DNA from: Candidatus Omnitrophota bacterium
GTDB lineage: Bacteria; Omnitrophota; Gorgyraeia; 2-01-FULL-45-10
Length of the DNA: 64,000 bases
Direction: 5' to 3'
Assembly (NCBI GenBank): GCA_023818895.1
Contig: JAMWCX010000001.1
Location: forward strand, 75,539 to 139,538
Position numbers and translations under genes: made by a program. Position 1 is the first letter of the stretch. Each line of letters opens with the position of its first letter. The notes beneath the pieces are model-generated. The model ran no database searches, was not told the DNA's origin, and saw only the letters and a list, made by a program, of their open reading frames with translations. Positions 47,086 through 57,621 of the stretch are shown here, in pieces.

Positions 47086-50000
47086 TTATGCGAATTCCTG
47101 TACCTTGTAGAGCCGCCTGAGGTTCTCGTAGACGGGGATCCTCTCTGCCTTGGGCAGGAAGATGAAGACGTTGCGGCAGTCCTTTAGGGCCTCGGCCCTC
47201 ACAGCTGGGTTGTCGAGAGCGTCTTCTGCAGCCAAAACGTCTTTTAGGCCTAGCTTCAATGCCATCGCGAGCATTTCCGTGAGGTACATATAGCAGCTCT
47301 CGTCCAGCCCGCTTGCGTCGACGCCGGCGAGAAATGCCTTTTCGTCATTGCGCAAGTATTCAAATTCCCGCGAGATGACGGTGTCGCGAGATGCGAGAAC
47401 GACTACCCGCGCCGCAGGGGTAATCTCTCTTGCCTTTGCTATTTCTGATAGTAGATCTTTGTCTTCGCGGTCAATGAATGTTATGCCGCGGTCATTACAG
47501 AAATTGCGGATCATGATTATGTGCTGATTAAGGTCGGCATATTGTGGTCCGTTTCCACGCATATAGCCTTTTATCCAGCTTGTGCCGAGAGCTAGTATTA
47601 CAGGCTCTTTCTGGTTCGCGGCGCGGATGAGCTTGACGATATCGGAGAACTTTACCGCTTCTATACGCGCAAGTTCCGCTCTCGGCTGTTCGTCTGGGCT
47701 GTAGCCTGACGTATCACTGGGTTGTAAAAAAGATCCTGTCTTGTTCTCATCTTCTGTCAGGATAGTTTTCGAATCACTAATTTTTGCGTTTACTTCAGAG
47801 GCCGCTTGCAGGTGCCAGAGCTTGGTTTTTCTTCCGTCGATTTCGGCATTAACCTTAACCCATATACCCCGGAACGGGTAAAGATAATTCTGCTTAAGAT
47901 TGCTGTTGGGAATTGGTGTTCGGAGCTTACCCGTATATCTATCTTCCAACTCCTCAACGGTAGATGCGTAAAAATATTCGAAACCCGCTTTTTGGGCCAA
48001 TCTGACAATATGCATTATAGCCCCTCTATTCCACTCGTAAAATCTTTGGCGTATTTCAAGAGGTTGGATGTTGCGGAATCCCAGGCTTGGCTGGACGTCA
48101 TATATGAGTAGGGCGGGTTTTTTGTTGTGTTCAGTTATCCGCAGGCGTATTACGCCGAAAAGGCCGCTGGAAGGCACATAGTCGTCAGATGCCATCATGT
48201 CGAGCGTGGCAAGTTCGGGATAGGCCTTTTTGGTATCTTCCGTAGGTTCGATCGCGAATTCCTGCGGGATTTCATCGTATTCGATATACGCGCCAACCTT
48301 TTGCCCTTTGACAGTCCATGTGAAGTAAGGATCCTTTTCCAGTAGTTCCAGTAGTCTGGCGAACTCCGCTGATTTCCGCAGAGAATTACCCGTCTTAGGC
48401 AATAGTAAATGTTGTGTGCCGGCATCGTAGTGGGGCGGCGCGAAAGAGCGAAATAAATTCTCAAGAGACTCATCATCGATGGATGTCAGTTTCTTGTTGA
48501 CAAGGCCGAAGAGCACCTGGGGCATTGTAACAATCTTTGAAAAATGCCTCTCCAAGGCATATAGCGCTCCGCCGAGACATCCTGAGTCCGGTTCGGGAGA
48601 TTTTAATATTTCACCGTTCGCAAGATAGCGCACCTCTTCTCCGCCGAAAGGCGCCAGCGACGTAACGCCGAGTTTTTTCATAGTGGCTATGACAGGTTGC
48701 CAGCGCCTCTGGTCATATATACTGTCTGGCAGCGCTGCCTCCGTTGCCGGAATACCCCACCGCGGAACACTTGGTATATCGACGATTATAGCGCTCGTCG
48801 ATATATTCTTTAAAACATTGTAATTGCCGCCCAGTATGAATACCACGCCTTTTTCGGCCGATATGGTTTTTCTTAAGTTTGACAGGTATATTTCCGCCTC
48901 TTTCTGATTTGCCATAACGATATCGTTTTTTTCACTGGCAGTAAAAATCTGCCCCGGATGCACCAAAAATGAAACCCGTCCACCTTGCTGCTTAATGGCC
49001 TTGCGTATAGCATCGGCGTGTTTGTCGATGTCCGCCCATTGGATAATGCGAGCCTCGGCCATCTGATACTTACTTACGATCTGATCGGCGCGCGCAAGAT
49101 AGCCGGTTGACCGTAGGTAATCCAGGCCGCGACTATGGTCCGACTCGGGTATCCTGTCGGTCCATTCATAGTCTTCCTCTTCACCATCATAGGGAACAAG
49201 ATCGATCTCTCCCCATTTGACTGTGTGGACCAGATAATGGAATGGGATATTTTCGTTTTTTCTGTACATACCAACAAGATATGCCTCATATCCAAGCTTA
49301 TTTAATATATATGTGAGCATGGCTGAGTTGGCTAGACATGATTTCAAATCCATCGACTTGACTGCGTTTTTGATCTCGTTTATGATGTCATTGCTGTTGT
49401 CTGTGTTAAGTCCATCTCTGGAACCTGAAGACGTATTTGATATTTCAGATACATATGTGGTCAGAGATAGGGTGGATATATTATCATCCCTATCCCTTGC
49501 TCCATCTTTTATAGCGCTGCTTATCTTCCCGCGGATTCTCACCTCATTGGAATCTTTGAGGATGGGCTCTAATTCGGAGATATCCTTTATGGCTATCCAA
49601 TTTTGGTGTTTATCATCGCCGGCTTTTTCATAGCTTATTTCTACGGATTCGAATATGCCGGCCCTGGCGCATCTAAGGAAAAATGCGGCATGTGTCTCAT
49701 CAGGTATGCCATAATATTCGATAAATCTATTTGGGCCGGCCTGCGATGCAAGCCATCTTACTACCTCGACACCCAATCCCCGCCGCGTATCTTTCTTGTC
49801 AAATATGCGCAGGTTCTTAAATAGCGTTGTCTCGCCATTCACGTAAAACGCGTATAATGTGCCAACAAGCTTTTCGTTCTCTTCGAGAAAATACCACGAT
49901 CTGTCAAAAGCTCGCAGCCTCAACCTCTTCTCCTCGGATATCTCTACATCTTCTTCTGGAAGCGTTGTCAGGGGAGCGCGATCAGTCTCTTCTGTCCATA

Positions 50001-53000
50001 TGCGGAAACATCTTTTCAATGCCTTTATTATTTCTCTAGCCCCTTCCCTCTCTCCTAGGTACTGTGTTAGGCGTGGAATGCCCGGTGTATTCATGGAGAG
50101 CCATTCGAGCTGCATTACTATTTCAGCTATAATTTGGTTATTCATTTGGTAAAGCGGGTCATCTTCGTGCTGGAGAGAGTCGAATATCCGGTTGGCTATC
50201 ACTTTGATAAGGCCGGGGTTTTGTTCACACGCCCTAACAAGGCCGTTTGTTATAAGCGCGTGATTGACGCAGCAAGGCATATAATGAGTATCATGAGCTA
50301 GGTTGACGATGACTTCAAGCGCGGTGCATATAGCTTCTTTTTGGCTTTCAGTGTTTAGTGAGGCGAGATACGCAGCCAATTCGCTATAACTGCGCTCGGC
50401 CATTTGTTTAATGTCGTTACGGGAAAGCGCGTCCCGCGTGCCTTCGGTATGGTCCATGCCTCCCAAAAGCGGGTGCTCATCGTCGCGCTTAAGTTTCTCT
50501 TCGTAAGAAAGCCAGGTAGTGGCAGAGGTTATTTCCTTGATTTTTTGCCCTTCCTGCCAGTGTTCGATTATCCCGTCCCGTCGCATAGTGGCGAATATGG
50601 GATTGGGTGCGCCGTGGATGTTCGCCGTCCTCCCTTTTTCGTACAATATTACGACATCCGCCTCTTTGCCGGAGGTTTGCTCTCTTACGCCGATCCTTCC
50701 CTCATCAAGATATGACACCAGATCTTGCGGTAGATCACAGGCCGTTATCTTGCCGTTCGAAACCTTTATCCTCCCAATATGTTTGCCATCCTGTGTAAAT
50801 GGATCAAAATCGGCCTTCATCACAGCATATTCGACAGAGTCCGAATTTTCCACCTCCGGCTTCTTATCGCCGGTTTGTTTTATGAGCTTTCTTGCGATAT
50901 GGACAAGTGCCGGATTAACGATGCCTGATATTCCGGAGTGGGACGCACCGTTCCTCCAGGCCGATTTGATGAGCCAGTTCAATACCGTCTCGCCTATTCC
51001 CTTGCCCCTGTCATTTACCCGGATCGTTGTTATGACATTCGTGCCCTTGTAATAATTGACCAGCCCAGCCTTCCTGCCGTCGGCTACAATCTCATATAAC
51101 TTGATAGGGCCTCCTCGATGAGATGGTATTTTGATTTTTATGTCCATAGCGCCTGTCTTTATATTCCGCAGTTTGATGACATTCCACAGGATACCGTAAT
51201 GATACTCTTCCCATATTGTTCCAAAAGCATCTGTTACGGTTCTTATTCGGCCATTTTTATCCTTTTCAATATACTCAAATGGCGCATGACCGTTATTTTG
51301 CCTCGCCACCCATTCAGGTGCTGCCATGTCATCTGGTATGCCTGGACCATCTCCTTCGCCTGACGGCGGATAATCATATGCCTGTATTTTTTTATCGGCT
51401 TTTAAGCCATCAAAATAAGCCAGTCTAGAGGCGATGGCTTTCTCTATTTTCTCTTTGTCCTCGGTCAGCTTGTATTCGAGGATCATTTGGAGTTCCTTAT
51501 CCATATCCATGTCACGAGGGGCTGTCTTTCTTATCTCATCGCGAAGATCCGCAAGCGTCTGGGCATCTTCGGGCCTTGCCAGGCCAATGTATTCTATAAG
51601 TAAATAGGTGTCTTTTTCGTGTATCGTCTCATCGAAGATCCTGACCGGTGTAAGATAGTTTTCTGTTAATACCGCAATTCGGCTTTTATAGGCATCAGAA
51701 GGAACTGTCGATATTTTCGACAGGCGTATCCATATTTTAGCAAGGGCTTCCATCGTGGCGAGCACATCCTCGCTTTTTTCTAATTTACCGATGTTAGATG
51801 TTATGACCTGCTCCATCTTGACAAGTTGTATCTCGGACGCCTTATCAATGTTTCGTATAAAGTTTGTAATCGAAAGCATGATATGTTGCTGTATTTCGGG
51901 TGAGAAGTTTTTGGCGCCATGGCCATCGTCAGCGGGCACGTCCCCTACAGAGAGGCTGTTGTGGTCCATGCCGCCAAGATACCAGTGCTCCTCATCCCGC
52001 TTTAGCATCTCATCACGGGTCAGATTTAAAAGACCGGTCTCTTCGGTCTTCCTGGCCAATATTATGTCAAGCTGCTGAGTCAGGTCAAACCTGCCTATAT
52101 ACTCTTTTGTCCTGTGTTCTATGCCGTAAAAGGCTCGAGTTCTCCTGATAGATGAGGTCACAAAGTCCGATTTTTCATCCGCTCTCATCTTCTTCCAGTT
52201 TTCCGTGGCCTCTTTGCTGTAATAGTCGGGATTAAAGGCTATATACAAAATCCCGCCTCTTTTCAGTGTCTTGGCCGCTGCTGAAATGAGCGCCTCCGGG
52301 TCTTTAACATAAGCCATGCCGGAGGTGATTATCACGGCGTCAAAATGGTTTTCCCACTCGGCGGGAAACTCCGGATTTGCGTTTAGGTCCTGCACGATGC
52401 GTTGGGTAAGTTTCGCGTTGACATTAAGCTCGTCCCTGTTGAGCCCTATTCCGATGATCTCCGACGCGTTTACGGATTGCGGCACATATGTAAAAGCGCC
52501 GCTCATGAGATCAAGGACCCTTGCCCCTCGTGGCAGGTAGTCTTTGAGATAGTCTTCTATGTATGTGGTGGCCGCATCTTCCAGATAGGGTATCGCGCTT
52601 TGCGTGTCAATTAAACTGAAAGATGATTTAACATAATGGAGGATAAGGCTGGTCCTCGTGCCTATTGCCGGCACATTTTCCATATGGAAATTTTCGGCCC
52701 CCAGACAGTGTTCTATAGTCTTGAGGCCGGCGCCCCCTCCCCATAGTCCCGCGTGAAATGCCTTCGTTCTAGATTCTGTGTTATCGTTTCTTGAGGCGGT
52801 ATCGTAGATGTCTACGGTGGTATTTTTTGCCAAAGAATCTATTTTTATGTCGAGGAAGATCGGCTTGCTGAAATCGGCTCTGTTGCCGTGTGAAAACGCG
52901 TTTTTGATGGCCTCCGCGATTGGTGTCATGCTTTTGCCATCGGTGAACGCGTCATCGAGTTTTCCGGAGAGCTTCATGATGGCATCATAAAGATCATCAT

Positions 53001-56000
53001 AAGCGGATTCTTTTTCGGCGAGATAAGCCAGATTCAAAGCCACTGCGTTACCGTTTTTAATGGCCTCGATAATTTTATCCACATTTCCTATGTTTATGTC
53101 AATGACGTTCTTGCCCGTAACACTTTTTACGGAAGCGGCGGTAAAACTGCCAGATATAGATGATGACGGCTCGGCATCTCTTATTCCTGACCAGCCAGTG
53201 GGCTTTGCTTCCTGGGGCCTTTCGAGATCGCGGGCTATGGCGGGATCGGTGGTCTGTTGGGCCGCTGAATCCTGCTTTGTTGCTGAAGGCCTGAGCTCAA
53301 GGTTGCCGTTTTTCCTTACGATGAGGAGCTTGTCCCGACCGGCGGCGCCTATAGCCGCAAGCATTCTTGTCGGTATCATCAAGCGATTGCCCTTCTGGAG
53401 GTTTGCTATAAATTCGCTGTTCGATCCTATGACCGTAAGCATTTCGTTATTTTTGGTATCTGTAATAGACTTGCCGAGCAATGGTTTTATTTTCTGTAAG
53501 AATTGACCGGCGGGATAGACAATGATGCATCTATCGTAACTTTTGCAGAAAAGATAAAAAGGTGCCTTGAATTGTGAGGCGAGGCGGGCGGGTATGGCAA
53601 CTCTGTTATTACTGTCGATAGTTACTTCTGCCAGAATTTCATCCTGGTTATCGTTAAGTTGCGCCTTATCGTTCTCAATGGAGTTTTTCTTGTCTTTATG
53701 TGATAAGTCGGTGTTTTGGTTTTTGGAAGAAGCATTATTTATTATCACCCCGAGTATCGAAACTAAAACCAGCCATTTTGTCGATACTGGCATCGTTCTT
53801 GATGCTGCGCTGGTGTGTCGGTAGGGTTTCTCTGGTTGTCTGAGCTCAGGCGGATCTTCTGCTTGGACAGGATAGAGTAGTTGGCCGTTATGGATCATGA
53901 GTCTGCTGCCATGGGAATTGTTTGCTTTTATGAGCATAACGTTTTCTATCATTCCAAGGTTTTGCAGAGCGCGGTAAATATTTTTTACGGTTCTTAGCCA
54001 ATGGGGACTGAAGATGCCGCTGTTATCCTCTAAGGCATAGCTCCCTTCAAGAATATATATCCTTAATCCCATTTTCTCGGTAAAGTTTGCAGCGATAGAA
54101 TCTTGTATTTCCTGTATAGTGCAAGCTGGCGTGAAATGGGCAAGATAGTGTTTTCCGTTTTGAGGATCGTCTATTGCTAAACCAGCGCATGTGCCGACGT
54201 TGTCGATGTATAAAGGGATATCGCGGGAGTTGATTTTGTAGCTCATCATCGGAACATATACCGCATTCGTGGTGACGTGGCATATCTCCATTGCTTCTGC
54301 TCTTCTCGAGAGGTCTTCCGATAAATTCCTGACCTCTATCGGCGTTATGGCGTAGTAGCGACAGTCCTTCATGGTATCGAGCAGGCCGAATGGTAGTAGT
54401 ATCGCTATGGCGAGTATGATGCCGCTCGCAAAGGCGGCTGGCAACTTCAGCCATTTCAGATGTTGTGCGCGCTTATCACGCTCTCCCCTCTTTTTCTCAT
54501 ACGGCGTGGTTTCATTTTCTCCCTGCACAAAGAAATGGATGAGTTCGTTTTTTGTTCTGTGATGCCTAAATCCCGATATCGGCTCCTTGAATAGCCTGAA
54601 GCCCTCATGCCCCTGAAGTATGAATATGCCGCCGGTTTTTATCTCTTTGAGTTTATCCACGAGTGCATATTCGACATCGTCCGGAGCACCGCCCATAAAG
54701 TAGTAGACAGCATCATACCTACCCAGATCTTCTTTGAGAAAATCCCCCTGCTTTATAGTGACGCTGCCCGGTTTGATGAGCCCTTCTTTTATAAGTTCAT
54801 CAAGCATCTCTTTGGCATATGAGACCTTAGACGGGTCCCACTCGACCATCGTGACCCTGAACCCGAAGACCGACGCCATGAAAAACCCGAAGCTTCCTAG
54901 GCCGCCCCCGAGATCTACTATATGTGCGCCTTCTTTGAGGCCCCATTCCCGCACCGTCGGTCCAACTATGTATTCACTCGAATCCATGAATATGCCGAAC
55001 GCGTTTTTCGGATCCCTGGAGACATACGGATGTTTCTGTCTGTAGTGTTCCTTGAAATCTATGAATGCCCTCATCCTCAAATATTGGGCGCGGCTCAGGT
55101 TCTCCTTTATGCTGTTTATATACTTTTCTCTGAATAGTTCTTCTCTTCTTATTCGGAGCTTTTCGTAGGGTATCGTGCCATCGAGTTCGGCTGAGATATT
55201 AAGGGCGTGATGAGCCCATGACGTGAGGGCAAAGAAAGCCACACTTTGAGGCATGCTCATGAATATCGGTGTGGCCATAACAACAGCATTTAGTAAAGCG
55301 ATAACCGTTATTTTATACCAGGGCGGCGCCTGCGGCATATGCTTGGCCCTGAAATAATGCGAGGCAACGAAAAGCGACCATGTTATGGCCGATGCCCAAA
55401 GACTTCCGGTGATTGGTGTCAAAATAATGGCTAATTCCCAGAATAACGCCTGCTCTATGAAAACCTGGGACCAGCTCTTTATCTTTTGTGGCATTGGGAA
55501 GGATTCGTCTATCTTGTCGATGAGCCAGGCCAATAGCGGTATCTGTCCCCATGCCTCTCCCTCACTAAAATAGTCGGTTTTTGCCTCATCTACATGTGAT
55601 ATAATATTGTCAATATCTTCGTGCAATCCTTTCAGATATGAGCATTTACCGAAATGCTTAACGAACCATTCTATTGTTTGAACAGGTTCGTAAATGGCAA
55701 GATGATTATCGAGAGTGATACCGTCTCGAAGGATTTTCCTGATAGCATCTGATGCTGCCTTAGACTGAGCCAGTTCTTCTAAAAGTTTTGAACGTGTCTC
55801 GCCCTTAAAGAGCTCTAAGATAACAGTTTCTGCCTGCCGGAATGTTGTTGGATTGAATCGTTGGACGAATGCTGTGAGCATTTGTTCCAGCCGAGCGCGG
55901 TTGAACTCATTTTTAGGTGGTGCCTTTTCATAGGCGTATATCTCTGATAAGAGAAACTCAAAATTGGCATTCATAACATCAGTTTGAAACCTGCTTGCAT

Positions 56001-57621
56001 CATCACGTAGTGCCTGGAGCATTCTTAGTAGTTCTACTATTATATTGTTTAGGGCAATATAACGCGAAGCGACAGCTGTCCCGGGAATACAATATTTTTT
56101 GAAATCCGATGCCAGTAGGGAATTTAGCCTTCTTAGAGTTGATTCCCGCGATAAGAGTACTTTCCAGAAGCTTTCCAAGTCCACCGCCCATCCGATTTTT
56201 TTGACCTCGTTAAGATATTTTCTTATATCGGCGTATGTATCCTCAAATATGCGTTCAAGGATTTTAATGGTAGGAATGGCGTGATGCGTCTCAGGGTCAT
56301 TTTCATCATTGAGGTAATCATCGACGTCATCATTGGCGTCATCATCGGGTGGCTGGGTAATATGTGGCGTCCCCGGCCCCCAGAGGAGGTTCTCGCGATC
56401 GTCTTTTTCGTATTCCTTCTCTTTTACATTTGCTGATGCGTTGATGTCGGACCTTTGAGCAGGAGGCTTTGTCTTAGAATGACCCAAAAACTTGTCATCG
56501 ACTTTAGATATGTTTTTGTCATCCTTATCGGCTAAGTTGTGGGTTTTACTCATCGCGGTGTCTTCGTTTGTTTGTATTAAGGGCATGACCTTTACATAGA
56601 CATTTGTGCCGTCACCGAGCGGTATCGTCATATCGGCATCTGTGTTTTTGTCCTCAAGATAATATTTGTAATAATAAGCCTTTACTCCGTTTCTATATAG
56701 TGGCAGATAATACGCCTTCTCTTCTTTGTTATAAAATAGTTCGTTTATCGCCAACCCTGCAAGGAGAGGATCGTTCTTGTTAGCGCGTTTTATATCTACT
56801 AAGGATATGTGGCGTTTTATTTCCGGGATAAGAGTATATTGAGATATACTATATTGTAGATATTTTCCTATCAGGATACTTATATCCCGAAAGACAGCTT
56901 TCTCGCGGAATTCTTTATCGTCAGCGTACGCTATGGCAATAAATTCATTCTCGGCGAATATCTCAGAGGAGTCGTTTTTTTTAGGGATGCGAAGTTGCGT
57001 CTTTGTACCGTCAGCAAAAGGTCGCCAGCTTATCGAGCCGCCTAATCTGCGCATTGTCAGAGATGCGTCAATAACTCCGGTACCATTGCCTCCAAAATGT
57101 TTCTTGAGGTGCTGGGACGACCTTTCCCTTTTTCTGTAAGCTGGAACACCTTCCTTTAGAAGCTCTATTGGCTTGCCATTATCGATTACATTTATTATCA
57201 GTTCGTCAGCGTCATAGTACGCCTCAATTGTGACTACACCTACAAATGATACAATCCCCTTATTGCGCATCTCTTCGAATTTATCAATTATAGAATCATA
57301 CGAGTTTTTCATTATTTCCATGAGCACATCTTCCATTAGGGGGTTTGTGGTAAGGCGCTGATATAGCGGGTTTTTCTCTACTTTTGTCTTAAAGTCCGTT
57401 TTTGAACGCAAAAATGACGATTCGATTTCCGGGTTGAAATTTATCCGAATCTCCGTCCTGGCACCATTTGCAACAGATAGTATAGGGCTAAATCTGCTGG
57501 GAGGGGCAAGGTGGTATGTTGCCTCATTGGTCGCAAAACTTAACTCGTTTAATATCAGGGCAAGAATCAGGAATACAGATATTATTTTTAAAGGCAGGCT
57601 TAGTTTGTAATAACTTAACAT
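47086..57621 (-). CDS. Giant multidomain exported/membrane protein (3,511 aa). Recognised modules in order: signal peptide, GHKL-like, transmembrane cluster, SAM methyltransferase, CheD-like, MraZ/AbrB-like, second SAM methyltransferase, a KRDEEH-LGGMDH repeat plus GNAT-like fold (twice), transglutaminase-like core, and a C-terminal region.
   Basis: A single uninterrupted 10,536-nt ORF with no internal stops and consistent codon usage. Motifs read directly from the translation include: INVIDNGKPI...HFGGNGTGV (HATPase_c-like); HIVDLGGGLGSFGFF...DAVYYF and RVLDLMSGAFTYV...GGILYIAF (class I methyltransferases); VGTCAGLAIDDPQNGKHYLAHF (CheD-like); NRVAIPARL.../GNRLMIPTRM... (MraZ double hairpin); GLVNYYKGTNVITTIRVNDRGKGIGETVLNWL and LVGTLYAFYVNGETTL...RRGLGVEVVRWL (GNAT-like); and C-x24-H-x17-D (KSCLANSAML...FHYLVHT...D). 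Confidence 0.7.
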   Translation of the reverse strand: MLSYYKLSLPLKIISVFLILALILNELSFATNEATYHLAPPSRFSPILSVANGARTEIRINFNPEIESSFLRSKTDFKTKVEKNPLYQRLTTNPLMEDVLMEIMKNSYDSIIDKFEEMRNKGIVSFVGVVTIEAYYDADELIINVIDNGKPIELLKEGVPAYRKRERSSQHLKKHFGGNGTGVIDASLTMRRLGGSISWRPFADGTKTQLRIPKKNDSSEIFAENEFIAIAYADDKEFREKAVFRDISILIGKYLQYSISQYTLIPEIKRHISLVDIKRANKNDPLLAGLAINELFYNKEEKAYYLPLYRNGVKAYYYKYYLEDKNTDADMTIPLGDGTNVYVKVMPLIQTNEDTAMSKTHNLADKDDKNISKVDDKFLGHSKTKPPAQRSDINASANVKEKEYEKDDRENLLWGPGTPHITQPPDDDANDDVDDYLNDENDPETHHAIPTIKILERIFEDTYADIRKYLNEVKKIGWAVDLESFWKVLLSRESTLRRLNSLLASDFKKYCIPGTAVASRYIALNNIIVELLRMLQALRDDASRFQTDVMNANFEFLLSEIYAYEKAPPKNEFNRARLEQMLTAFVQRFNPTTFRQAETVILELFKGETRSKLLEELAQSKAASDAIRKILRDGITLDNHLAIYEPVQTIEWFVKHFGKCSYLKGLHEDIDNIISHVDEAKTDYFSEGEAWGQIPLLAWLIDKIDESFPMPQKIKSWSQVFIEQALFWELAIILTPITGSLWASAITWSLFVASHYFRAKHMPQAPPWYKITVIALLNAVVMATPIFMSMPQSVAFFALTSWAHHALNISAELDGTIPYEKLRIRREELFREKYINSIKENLSRAQYLRMRAFIDFKEHYRQKHPYVSRDPKNAFGIFMDSSEYIVGPTVREWGLKEGAHIVDLGGGLGSFGFFMASVFGFRVTMVEWDPSKVSYAKEMLDELIKEGLIKPGSVTIKQGDFLKEDLGRYDAVYYFMGGAPDDVEYALVDKLKEIKTGGIFILQGHEGFRLFKEPISGFRHHRTKNELIHFFVQGENETTPYEKKRGERDKRAQHLKWLKLPAAFASGIILAIAILLPFGLLDTMKDCRYYAITPIEVRNLSEDLSRRAEAMEICHVTTNAVYVPMMSYKINSRDIPLYIDNVGTCAGLAIDDPQNGKHYLAHFTPACTIQEIQDSIAANFTEKMGLRIYILEGSYALEDNSGIFSPHWLRTVKNIYRALQNLGMIENVMLIKANNSHGSRLMIHNGQLLYPVQAEDPPELRQPEKPYRHTSAASRTMPVSTKWLVLVSILGVIINNASSKNQNTDLSHKDKKNSIENDKAQLNDNQDEILAEVTIDSNNRVAIPARLASQFKAPFYLFCKSYDRCIIVYPAGQFLQKIKPLLGKSITDTKNNEMLTVIGSNSEFIANLQKGNRLMIPTRMLAAIGAAGRDKLLIVRKNGNLELRPSATKQDSAAQQTTDPAIARDLERPQEAKPTGWSGIRDAEPSSSISGSFTAASVKSVTGKNVIDINIGNVDKIIEAIKNGNAVALNLAYLAEKESAYDDLYDAIMKLSGKLDDAFTDGKSMTPIAEAIKNAFSHGNRADFSKPIFLDIKIDSLAKNTTVDIYDTASRNDNTESRTKAFHAGLWGGGAGLKTIEHCLGAENFHMENVPAIGTRTSLILHYVKSSFSLIDTQSAIPYLEDAATTYIEDYLKDYLPRGARVLDLMSGAFTYVPQSVNASEIIGIGLNRDELNVNAKLTQRIVQDLNANPEFPAEWENHFDAVIITSGMAYVKDPEALISAAAKTLKRGGILYIAFNPDYYSKEATENWKKMRADEKSDFVTSSIRRTRAFYGIEHRTKEYIGRFDLTQQLDIILARKTEETGLLNLTRDEMLKRDEEHWYLGGMDHNSLSVGDVPADDGHGAKNFSPEIQQHIMLSITNFIRNIDKASEIQLVKMEQVITSNIGKLEKSEDVLATMEALAKIWIRLSKISTVPSDAYKSRIAVLTENYLTPVRIFDETIHEKDTYLLIEYIGLARPEDAQTLADLRDEIRKTAPRDMDMDKELQMILEYKLTEDKEKIEKAIASRLAYFDGLKADKKIQAYDYPPSGEGDGPGIPDDMAAPEWVARQNNGHAPFEYIEKDKNGRIRTVTDAFGTIWEEYHYGILWNVIKLRNIKTGAMDIKIKIPSHRGGPIKLYEIVADGRKAGLVNYYKGTNVITTIRVNDRGKGIGETVLNWLIKSAWRNGASHSGISGIVNPALVHIARKLIKQTGDKKPEVENSDSVEYAVMKADFDPFTQDGKHIGRIKVSNGKITACDLPQDLVSYLDEGRIGVREQTSGKEADVVILYEKGRTANIHGAPNPIFATMRRDGIIEHWQEGQKIKEITSATTWLSYEEKLKRDDEHPLLGGMDHTEGTRDALSRNDIKQMAERSYSELAAYLASLNTESQKEAICTALEVIVNLAHDTHYMPCCVNHALITNGLVRACEQNPGLIKVIANRIFDSLQHEDDPLYQMNNQIIAEIVMQLEWLSMNTPGIPRLTQYLGEREGAREIIKALKRCFRIWTEETDRAPLTTLPEEDVEISEEKRLRLRAFDRSWYFLEENEKLVGTLYAFYVNGETTLFKNLRIFDKKDTRRGLGVEVVRWLASQAGPNRFIEYYGIPDETHAAFFLRCARAGIFESVEISYEKAGDDKHQNWIAIKDISELEPILKDSNEVRIRGKISSAIKDGARDRDDNISTLSLTTYVSEISNTSSGSRDGLNTDNSNDIINEIKNAVKSMDLKSCLANSAMLTYILNKLGYEAYLVGMYRKNENIPFHYLVHTVKWGEIDLVPYDGEEEDYEWTDRIPESDHSRGLDYLRSTGYLARADQIVSKYQMAEARIIQWADIDKHADAIRKAIKQQGGRVSFLVHPGQIFTASEKNDIVMANQKEAEIYLSNLRKTISAEKGVVFILGGNYNVLKNISTSAIIVDIPSVPRWGIPATEAALPDSIYDQRRWQPVIATMKKLGVTSLAPFGGEEVRYLANGEILKSPEPDSGCLGGALYALERHFSKIVTMPQVLFGLVNKKLTSIDDESLENLFRSFAPPHYDAGTQHLLLPKTGNSLRKSAEFARLLELLEKDPYFTWTVKGQKVGAYIEYDEIPQEFAIEPTEDTKKAYPELATLDMMASDDYVPSSGLFGVIRLRITEHNKKPALLIYDVQPSLGFRNIQPLEIRQRFYEWNRGAIMHIVRLAQKAGFEYFYASTVEELEDRYTGKLRTPIPNSNLKQNYLYPFRGIWVKVNAEIDGRKTKLWHLQAASEVNAKISDSKTILTEDENKTGSFLQPSDTSGYSPDEQPRAELARIEAVKFSDIVKLIRAANQKEPVILALGTSWIKGYMRGNGPQYADLNQHIIMIRNFCNDRGITFIDREDKDLLSEIAKAREITPAARVVVLASRDTVISREFEYLRNDEKAFLAGVDASGLDESCYMYLTEMLAMALKLGLKDVLAAEDALDNPAVRAEALKDCRNVFIFLPKAERIPVYENLRRLYKVQEFA

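Follow-up and report, generated by a model that had tools for sequence, protein, structure and literature searches.

The question raised by this locus is what is marked by a short peptide that occurs twice inside a single long protein of a Candidatus Omnitrophota bacterium. A sequence-only reading of the window, i.e. the whole analysed stretch of 64,000 nucleotides, had taken the peptide (KRD[DE]EH..LGGMDH) as the sign of an ancient tandem duplication of a cassette of about 500 aa. The open reading frame (47086..57621, minus strand) is modular and encodes 3,511 aa. Its hydrophobic segments are confined to the first ~1,300 residues (4-32, 769-791, 1057-1086 and 1276-1295) and are followed by a soluble series of enzyme-like modules. 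The domain types are methyltransferases, HATPase-like, GNAT and MraZ-like domains; no match to a C39, S8, dockerin or glycosyl-hydrolase domain turned up in the protein. Its homologues are named Candidatus Omnitrophica, and its N-terminal anchor and C-terminal module of ~200 aa are common to four long Omnitrophota proteins (P0001-P0004). The locus is part of a cellular chromosome with housekeeping neighbours. P0001, with 5,638 aa and a different module set, is the positional counterpart: the proteins flanking the two are 74-88% identical, and the downstream gene order is the same at both loci (carB fragment, purF, guaA, purL, purQ, ParA-like), with no carA called beside the carB fragment.

Each of the two copies has 21 residues. 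Copy 1, LTRDEMLKRDEEHWYLGGMDH (aa 1867-1887; 51961..52023, minus strand), is found between the second SAM-methyltransferase module, its upstream neighbour (aa 1695-1821; 52159..52539, minus strand; Methyltransf_23 E = 2.4e-6, Methyltransf_11 E = 2.7e-5), and a module that we call X. Copy 2, LSYEEKLKRDDEHPLLGGMDH (aa 2371-2391; 50449..50511, minus strand), lies between modules Y and Z. The copies are in frame, spaced by exactly 504 aa (1,512 nt), and identical at 14 of 21 positions, with a BLASTP match of E = 1e-5 between the two cassettes, which bears out the recurrence reported earlier. Local alignment of one part of the protein with the other reaches at best a score of 75, a value matched by none of 300 shuffles (50.5 +/- 5.2, maximum 73); the repeat is above chance, if only moderately. 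The pair is the top DNA direct repeat of the gene and the sole clear 9-mer repeat in the protein (at least 7/9 identity), and the ORF has no other strong internal repeat.

A third copy, LSPEEKLRRDEENWELGGMER, was identified in P0013 (aa 6132-6151) with an HMM made from the two window copies (E = 2.1e-7 in 82,628 residues). It sits between a GNAT-like module, different from those described here, and a kinase module. Besides the peptide, P0013 and the 3,511-aa protein share only the HATPase-like module and Y; the Cys-His-Asp-like region of the latter (aa 2741-2900) has no match in P0013. No relatives of the peptide were found in species genomes or JGI metagenomes. Over its ~21-25 residues, the peptide runs from a charged helix through Leu-Gly-Gly-Met to an acidic residue. 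Both AlphaFold models show the first half of copy 2 as a helix of low confidence (pLDDT ~47-57) and LGGMDH as unstructured, with the whole copy outside the folded domains of pLDDT ~90. The low pLDDT at this position may come from missing alignment depth and not from disorder.

The modules that follow the two copies belong to separate families. Module X (aa 1894-2085; 51367..51942, minus strand) is helical, and its homologues, in P0001 (3642-3821) and P0015 (4134-4311), are each preceded by the boundary peptide of their own host protein. Module Y (aa 2106-2353; 50563..51306, minus strand) combines YD/RHS-like beta hairpins and a C-terminal beta subdomain with a partial GNAT-like core (aa ~2173-2246; 50884-51105, minus strand), whose loop reads RGKGIG; the Y family comprises 14 copies in 11 proteins. 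Module Z (aa 2399-2712; 49486..50427, minus strand) joins an all-helical subdomain (aa ~2401-2545; 49987-50421, minus strand), with an invariant Cys/His/Cys (PCxINH...AC), to a full GNAT fold (aa ~2559-2700; 49522-49947, minus strand). The Z family counts 18 copies spread over 17 proteins, six of which are stand-alone and 299-375 aa long. One further 9-mer pair with at least 7/9 identity, chance-like, lies inside module Z. The distributions of X, Y and Z are independent, each being found alone in other proteins and contexts, and the three appear to come from a common stock of modules, arranged in different orders in related proteins.

Other junctions in these proteins also carry recurrent peptides. 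Between X and Y the 3,511-aa protein has a second kind, AYDYPPSGEGDGPGIPDDMA (aa 2081-2100; 51322..51381, minus strand), which shares 76% identity with aa 3362-3382 of P0002, where the context differs. A third kind, WGPGTPHITQPPD (aa 414-426; 56344..56382, minus strand), is identical or nearly so to two copies in P0006 and two in P0009. The relatives have recurrent boundary peptides of their own: KPGSSDMEA in P0001 (eight copies), SSPAQ in P0012 (18), RSE[IM]R in P0015 (15), R[AS]E[TS]R in P0025 (16) and KPQPAD in P0020 (four). None of those of P0012 and P0001 is inside a Pfam domain. Directly before module X, the peptide is KRD..LGGMDH here, KPSSSDIET in P0001 and RSEIR in P0015. No recurrent peptide was seen in P0003, P0004, P0017, P0021 and P0027, and most junctions of the 3,511-aa protein are without the KRD[DE]EH..LGGMDH peptide, which it has in two copies only. 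In a crude test, 10 of the peptide sites were spanned by homology segments where 18.9 would be expected, which is only a modest depletion.

Together, these observations suggest that KRD[DE]EH..LGGMDH is probably a portable inter-module boundary peptide and no mark of a duplicated cassette. The peptides sit at module boundaries, in the linkers of a membrane-anchored Omnitrophota protein with many enzyme modules, each mobile by itself, and the modules after them (X and Y after copy 1, Z after copy 2) are different families, shuffled independently. Against this reading stand the junctions and relatives that have no such peptide, and the modest size of the depletion.

Among the alternatives, the one that survives best is a historical hitch-hiker, i.e. 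a functionless linker end moved along with recombining modules, so that its recurrence would reflect shared linker ancestry. Modules are clearly reshuffled among related proteins, even at the syntenic locus, and in the closest homologue, P0002, the GDGPG peptide is seemingly tied to the N-terminus of Y; both facts would suit such a history. We nevertheless consider it unlikely. Seven of the 14 identical residues share a codon between copies 1 and 2, against 6.0 expected from codon usage; hence no recent duplication or gene conversion has taken place, and what is conserved is the peptide. Synonymous sites between the copies are saturated, which shows selection at the level of the peptide; combined with the 14 of 21 residues kept and with linker residues that are not conserved around either copy, this indicates purifying selection. 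The three copies also have different neighbours (methyltransferase/X, Y/Z and GNAT-like/kinase), and the eight copies of KPGSSDMEA in P0001 use varied synonymous codons.

Tandem duplication of a unit made of the peptide, a helical region and a GNAT domain, with later divergence leaving only the peptide and the core recognisable, is in our view somewhat more improbable again. It accounts for several features: both halves are collinear (peptide, mostly helical stretch, GNAT-like core), the spacing of 504 aa is in frame, and the Y and Z cores share an unusual G-[IL]-G-x-x-V-x-x-W signature and match at the profile level. The GNAT cores that had been quoted (aa 2186-2222 and 2585-2627) do fall within GNAT-like folds, so that this part of the earlier description stands, but they begin 312 and 207 residues downstream of their respective peptides and not 250-300. 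The GNAT fold (mixed beta sheet with alpha3/alpha4, V-shaped acyl-CoA site) is recognisable, as is the Motif A pyrophosphate-binding loop (Q/R-x-x-G-x-G/A): in Y and Z alike, the pyrophosphate-binding position is taken by a Gly-x-Gly loop, RGKGIG in Y and RRGLGV in Z. Y holds the beta4-alpha3-beta5-alpha4 half of the GNAT superfamily (Pfam PF00583 and relatives), but departs from that superfamily in having no N-terminal alpha1-alpha2 arm and in its fusion to the beta-hairpin and beta subdomains. Foldseek matches Y to GNAT structures along some 90 columns, with a probability near 1.0 but E values of 0.009-0.08. Neither module reaches the Pfam GNAT threshold: Y has no GNAT match in the Pfam search, and the best for Z is Acetyltransf_1 with 13.8 bits (cut-off 20.7, E = 0.074), a family matched by four of the 18 Z members (best E = 0.0018). 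The best structural match of Z is the C-terminal domain of M. tuberculosis isocitrate lyase 2 / Rv1916, which binds acetyl-CoA without being catalytic, so that module Z may bind acyl-CoA instead of transferring acyl groups.

Direct comparison of the two cassettes speaks against the duplication. In BLASTP self-alignment, nothing beyond the peptide (21-34 aa) is significant; everything else has E >= 1, and the GNAT stretch E = 2-4. With hmmsearch, neither the Y nor the Z profile retrieves the other family. Local hhalign of the family profiles matches Y with Z at 87.9% probability (E = 3.3e-6), across the 73 columns of the GNAT core only; judged from these profiles, the two are related only at the level of this core, and the cores are distantly homologous. 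The beta hairpins and beta subdomain of Y are absent from Z. For the helical halves, hhalign gives X against Z a probability of 0.2%, with an X profile that is thin (three sequences), and X has zero cysteines, hence it is without the invariant Cys/His/Cys of Z. The two units do not have the same sub-domains or spacing, given the 312 and 207 residues from peptide to core, the beta parts of Y and the Cys/His subdomain of Z. They are also not each other's closest relatives, since Y and Z both have far closer ones elsewhere; Z exists as a stand-alone protein, Y is paired with Z in no other protein, and in P0013 the peptide adjoins neither X nor Z.

The suggestion that the acidic residues, His and GGMDH form a metal-binding or catalytic micro-motif of an enzyme domain draws on the Asp/Glu/His-rich composition of the peptide and on both His being kept in the two window copies; it is weakened to the point of being very improbable, because the P0013 copy has Asn for the first His and Arg for the last, and both models place the peptide beyond the confidently folded domains. 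It is likewise not within the X, Y or Z family profiles, the module flanks differ in other proteins, and Pfam, NCBIfam and PDB sequence searches gave no match over it. Chance likeness of two charged, low-complexity stretches is hardly tenable: the shuffle maximum does come near the observed score and charged helices like its first half are a common type, but no shuffle reaches that score, the BLASTP match is as given above, a shuffled protein has no 9-mer pair with at least 7/9 identity, and the independent third copy, with its non-charged LGGM part, largely refutes it.

Returning to the boundary peptide, its most likely role, we infer, is that of a sequence-specific recognition element in the linker. 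In the version that we tentatively favour, one of the options raised by the sequence-only reading, proteolytic processing at or after LGG would free or separate the modules; alternatively, the element would serve for docking or regulation. No cognate protease turned up in the 3,511-aa protein or among the annotated ORFs of the window.

Long and giant proteins of Omnitrophota are acknowledged to be puzzling. Very long multi-enzyme proteins are described as 'Archaeovorin'-type (West-Roberts et al. 2023, bioRxiv 10.1101/2023.11.21.568195) and as 'Pfam module 1' long proteins (bioRxiv 10.64898/2026.06.07.730766, with a cut-off of at least 10,000 aa). They are likewise single ORFs of unrelated enzyme domains, with an N-terminal membrane anchor and transmembrane segments, and both preprints list the same domain types as in the 3,511-aa protein, which is far under that cut-off and can be regarded as a smaller relative of the same kind. 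According to both, C39 domains are common in such proteins. Whether and where the proteins are cleaved is described in this literature as an open question; in a term search of the two preprints, neither recurrent boundary peptides nor syntenic module turnover came up. The narrower result of the window is three unrelated modules parted by a shared linker peptide, with no duplicated cassette. If short protein-specific peptides mark module boundaries, they would provide candidate cut or recognition sites searchable in metaproteomes, a principled way of splitting long proteins for structure prediction, and a handle on module gain and loss, here at a syntenic locus with flanking proteins of 74-88% identity.

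Double-glycine leader peptides, which are cut by C39 peptidase domains, offer one comparison. Their consensus is LSxxELxxIxGG, with GG at -2/-1 after a helix with hydrophobics at -4, -7, -12 and -15; they are N-terminal, and the cognate C39 peptidase is usually on an ABC exporter. The boundary peptide likewise has an amphipathic or charged helix followed by Gly-Gly, and its L[ST]x[DE]E start resembles LSxxEL. The GG and the Leu at -12 are present in all three copies and a hydrophobic residue at -4 in two of three, whereas positions -7 and -15 are acidic. Unlike these leaders, the peptide is internal (aa 1867 and 2371). Neither a C39 nor an S8 domain was found among the annotated ORFs of the window, and no ABC exporter either there or in the 3,511-aa protein. 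The likeness may serve as a lead, not as a test.

Viral polyproteins offer another. Unlike them, the 3,511-aa protein is encoded on a cellular chromosome among housekeeping genes and has only two sites of this kind, which are candidates by position and conservation. As in viral polyproteins, a long ORF contains unrelated units split by a short, lineage-specific recurrent peptide, and the LGG of the peptide resembles the LxGG sites of viral papain-like proteases. The boundary peptides (KRD..LGGMDH here and in P0013, KPGSSDMEA in P0001, SSPAQ in P0012, RSEMR in P0015/P0025) could be the cleavage sites of bacterial polyproteins, each translated as a single chain and then cut into separate enzymes by a lineage-specific protease whose specificity would co-evolve with the sites; the idea is doubtful as it stands, but if true it would answer whether and where the giant proteins of Omnitrophota are processed.

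The 3,511-aa ORF (10.5 kb; window 47086-57621, minus strand) holds both copies of the peptide and lies among ordinary chromosomal genes, with carA, carB, purF, guaA, purL, purQ and a ParA-like ATPase gene downstream and a DUF1846 gene upstream. Elsewhere in the window are genes for pyruvate phosphate dikinase, a sigma-70 factor, LpxA, EF-P and MnmG. The Pfam search of the protein returned two SAM-methyltransferase domains, an MraZ/AbrB-like domain, weak HATPase-like matches and a sub-threshold GNAT match, and strongly hydrophobic segments are confined to its first ~1,300 residues. Its nearest relatives have 2,453-5,638 aa, and some are named Candidatus Omnitrophica. The N-terminal anchor of this protein has an ILN[DE][LT]SFA motif in common with those of the related long proteins P0001-P0003. 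The membrane-embedded stretch at aa 684-813 (window ~55180-55570) has F-x-x-x-H (FVASH) and H-x-x-x-N (HHALN) motifs at a spacing that we take to be reminiscent of CPBP/CAAX-type intramembrane proteases; it has no Pfam match, and a clearer version of the motif set (EEIFYR ... FADAH ... HAALN) is present in P0025. The C-terminal residue is Ala in 21 of the 33 compared proteins (VQEFA, AMIRA, LTKA, KNAA, TSA and others; the C-terminus of the window's protein is at 47089-47130), a set that includes carriers of a conserved C-terminal module of ~200 aa and some short stand-alone proteins.

Copy 1 of the peptide, LTRDEMLKRDEEHWYLGGMDH, occupies aa 1867-1887 (window 51961-52023, minus strand) and copy 2, LSYEEKLKRDDEHPLLGGMDH, aa 2371-2391 (window 50449-50511, minus strand), at the positions that the sequence-only reading had given. 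The copies are identical at 14 of 21 residues and are spaced by exactly 504 aa. A whole-protein self-BLAST returned the identity match alone, and the protein was then split for comparison: BLASTP of one half of the proposed duplication against the other gave E = 1e-5 for the peptide, and local alignment of the two parts reached a top score of 75, which none of 300 shuffles attained (50.5 +/- 5.2). The pair is also the top direct repeat at the DNA level (53 nt, 74% identity), and among the 9-mers of the protein it is the sole clear repeat; one other pair, chance-like, lies inside module Z (described below). The repeat is significant, not overwhelmingly so. Separately, T[IT]PYEK followed by basic and acidic residues flanks methyltransferase module 1 (aa 822-1033) on both sides, at aa 816-821 (window 55159-55176) and aa 1038-1043 (window 54493-54510); its likeness to the first half of the KRD peptide ([SP]YE(E)K[LK][KR]) is loose and weak, and could be due to chance.

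The two copies had been interpreted as marks of a tandem duplication of ~500 aa, each half consisting of the peptide and a GNAT-like domain. This interpretation is mostly wrong. The quoted GNAT cores are present and begin 312 and 207 residues, not 250-300, beyond the peptides; when the halves are aligned pairwise, significance is restricted to the peptide, and the GNAT stretches give E = 2-4. Searched exhaustively with HMMER, aa 1860-2760 resolved into three separately distributed modules, X (residues 1894-2085), Y (2106-2353) and Z (2399-2712). Module X occurs elsewhere in P0001 and P0015, and module Y has 14 copies in 11 proteins, window included, one of them a stand-alone protein of 288 aa. 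In no other protein of the set do Y and Z, or X and Y, occur together. The Y and Z profiles do not match each other by hmmsearch, and profile-profile comparison aligned 73 columns of the GNAT core only (87.9% probability, E = 3.3e-6). Comparison of X with the helical half of Z gave 0.2% probability, the X profile being built from three sequences; X has no cysteines, while the helical half of Z has an invariant Cys/His/Cys set (PCxINH...AC). With X, Y and Z as single-sequence queries, Pfam and PDB gave no informative match, and a homologue search with aa 1860-2760 returned no candidate at E <= 1, though P0001 and P0002 match the region otherwise. The Y and Z domains are GNAT-like with distantly homologous cores, and they differ in architecture and history. 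The 504-aa spacing of the peptides is most plausibly coincidental.

Both GNAT-like domains are divergent members of the fold that fall below the Pfam threshold, one of them being a partial fold. The model of Y (mean pLDDT 80) has N-terminal beta hairpins, a beta-beta-beta-alpha-beta-alpha core and a C-terminal beta subdomain. The hairpins gave weak YD/RHS-like matches, with teneurin/Rhs among low-probability fold matches; Foldseek with Y retrieved GNATs at probability ~1.0 (E = 0.009-0.08, about 90 columns); and the family profile matched the beta subdomain (window 50563-50800, profile positions 157-214) to the putative anti-sigma factor PDB 4m0h/4m0n at E = 5e-5. Module Z is modelled as an all-helical subdomain (window 49987-50421) followed by a complete GNAT fold, both with pLDDT ~90. 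In fold searches its GNAT half comes closest to the C-terminal domain of M. tuberculosis ICL2/Rv1916, which binds acetyl-CoA and is described as acetyl-CoA-sensing. Across the 18 members of the Z family the Cys/His/Cys set is invariant, and this conservation suggests a metal or redox site. The family also includes stand-alone proteins, one of which, P0008, has a signal-peptide-like N-terminus.

Regarding the peptide itself, copy 1 lies between methyltransferase 2 and X, and copy 2 between Y and Z. Both models place copy 2 outside the folded domains and show it as a low-confidence helix that runs into coil; the alignments have no depth over this stretch, which itself lowers confidence. An HMM built from the two window copies alone detected a third copy, LSPEEKLRRDEENWELGGMER, in P0013 at E = 2.1e-7 (82,628 residues). 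In this 6,685-aa protein the peptide separates another GNAT-like module from a protein kinase module; two variants in P0009 are weaker and split. L, E, L, R, D, E and LGGM are unchanged in all three clear copies. The window copies share codons at 7 of the 14 identical residues, close to the 6.0 expected from the codon usage of the gene, so the copies are old and it is the peptide, not the DNA, that is conserved. Searched as an exact degenerate DNA pattern, R-D-[DE]-E-[HN]-x-x-L-G-G-M-[DE] occurred 0 times in the species genomes and 0 times in the JGI metagenomes. A protein homologue search that used the peptide alignment returned no candidate, and related-locus searches, run both with this alignment and with aa 1860-2720, gave pattern matches and zero confirmed relatives. 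The data show a conserved, portable element at module boundaries, and we consider its reading as a boundary peptide probable.

From the window alone, the evidence for a boundary marker is thin, being two copies. Related proteins have their own recurring short peptides, at spacings of 100-900 residues: KPGSSDMEA in P0001 (8 copies; protein at L001:103-17019), [AGS]SSPAQ in P0012 (18), (S)RSE[IMLV]R in P0015 (15), R[AS]E[TS]R in P0025 (16) and KP[QE]PAD in P0020 (4), as well as WGPGTPHITQPPD in P0006, P0009 and the window's protein (2, 2 and 1 copies). These sites bracket modules: Z in P0012 (207-520) lies between sites 202 and 516, Z in P0025 (4572-4881) between 4570 and 4873, X in P0015 (4134-4311) between 4129 and 4315, and an MraZ-like module in P0001 between 3268 and 3412. 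None of the recurrent sites of P0012 and P0001 falls inside a Pfam domain. The most telling case is the N-terminal boundary of X, where the peptide just before the module is KRD..LGGMDH in the window's protein, KPSSSDIET in P0001 and RSEIR in P0015. Homology segments spanned 10 sites against 18.9 expected, which is only mildly supportive, the test being crude and too noisy to decide the matter. The pattern is not universal, as several relatives have no recurrent peptide. The WGPGTPHITQPPD copy of the window's protein (aa 414-426, window 56344-56382) is identical or nearly identical to those of P0006 and P0009, and AYDYPPSGEGDGPGIPDDMA (aa 2081-2100, window 51322-51381) is 76% identical to aa 3362-3382 of P0002; both are junction peptides found in different contexts in other proteins.

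The P0001 locus (L001:103-26653) is syntenic with window 34560-57621, comprising a long ORF, carB, purF, guaA, purL, purQ and a ParA-like gene, with the difference that carB is a 523-aa fragment in L001 and carA is not called there. The flanking proteins are 74-88% identical, whereas P0001 has 5,638 aa against 3,511 aa in the window, ~50% identity in shared modules, and a different module set and boundary peptide. P0001 is the positional counterpart of the window's protein, and the conserved flanks around a divergent long protein indicate a modular gene that evolves fast while its position is conserved.

We infer that the peptide would serve for sequence-specific recognition within the linker. 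Within the boundary-peptide reading, we favour a processing site, with the cut at or after LGG, as a tentative candidate. The layout is polyprotein-like, with unrelated enzymes parted by a protein-specific recurrent peptide, and the helix followed by Gly-Gly presumably resembles double-glycine leaders and LxGG sites. In addition, C39 and S8 peptidase domains are reported as common in Omnitrophota giant proteins (West-Roberts et al. 2023, 10.1101/2023.11.21.568195; 2026 preprint, 10.64898/2026.06.07.730766), whose cleavage is explicitly stated as an open question (10.1101/2023.11.21.568195). Against processing, the window's protein has only two sites of the KRD..LGGMDH kind; no protease for the peptide was found in this protein or in the annotated window ORFs. 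The peptide might instead reasonably serve for docking or regulation, with its conserved L-[ST]-x-[DE]-E start as a candidate phospho-site. Directly after module Z, a region at aa ~2759-2810 (window 49192-49347) has a Cys that opens a helix (SCLANSAMLTYILNKLG), two strands with FHYLVH and a strand with Asp, a layout that recalls the Cys-His-Asp cores of transglutaminase-like or papain-like proteins (model confidence only 55-74). It has no sequence-family match, and single-sequence queries of Pfam and PDB with it were uninformative; a comparable pattern was found at aa 3068 of P0012 by regular-expression search, and P0017 and P0028 look similar by eye. Recognition of the peptide by this nearby domain is not supported, in view of that model confidence, of fold-search lists filled by GNATs, and of P0013, which has the peptide without such a domain. 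The metal or catalytic site proposed from sequence is argued against by the change of both His positions in P0013. The conserved Met was rejected as an internal translation start, the Gly-Gly codons standing only 0-1 nt from the ATG, too near for a ribosome-binding site, and a DNA-level recombination site was rejected on the codon evidence from the window copies and from the KPGSSDMEA copies of P0001, among which synonymous codons vary.

In the two Omnitrophota papers, a term search turned up nothing on recurrent boundary peptides and nothing on module turnover at a syntenic locus, and a search for literature on polyproteins in Omnitrophota found nothing relevant. Re-reading the peptide as a boundary marker makes the open question testable. 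Compared with the long multi-enzyme proteins of Omnitrophota, the window's protein is shorter than the 10,000-aa cut-off used for them (10.64898/2026.06.07.730766), and C39, S8 and dockerin domains were undetected in it; its domain types are alike, and it is a small relative of these proteins.
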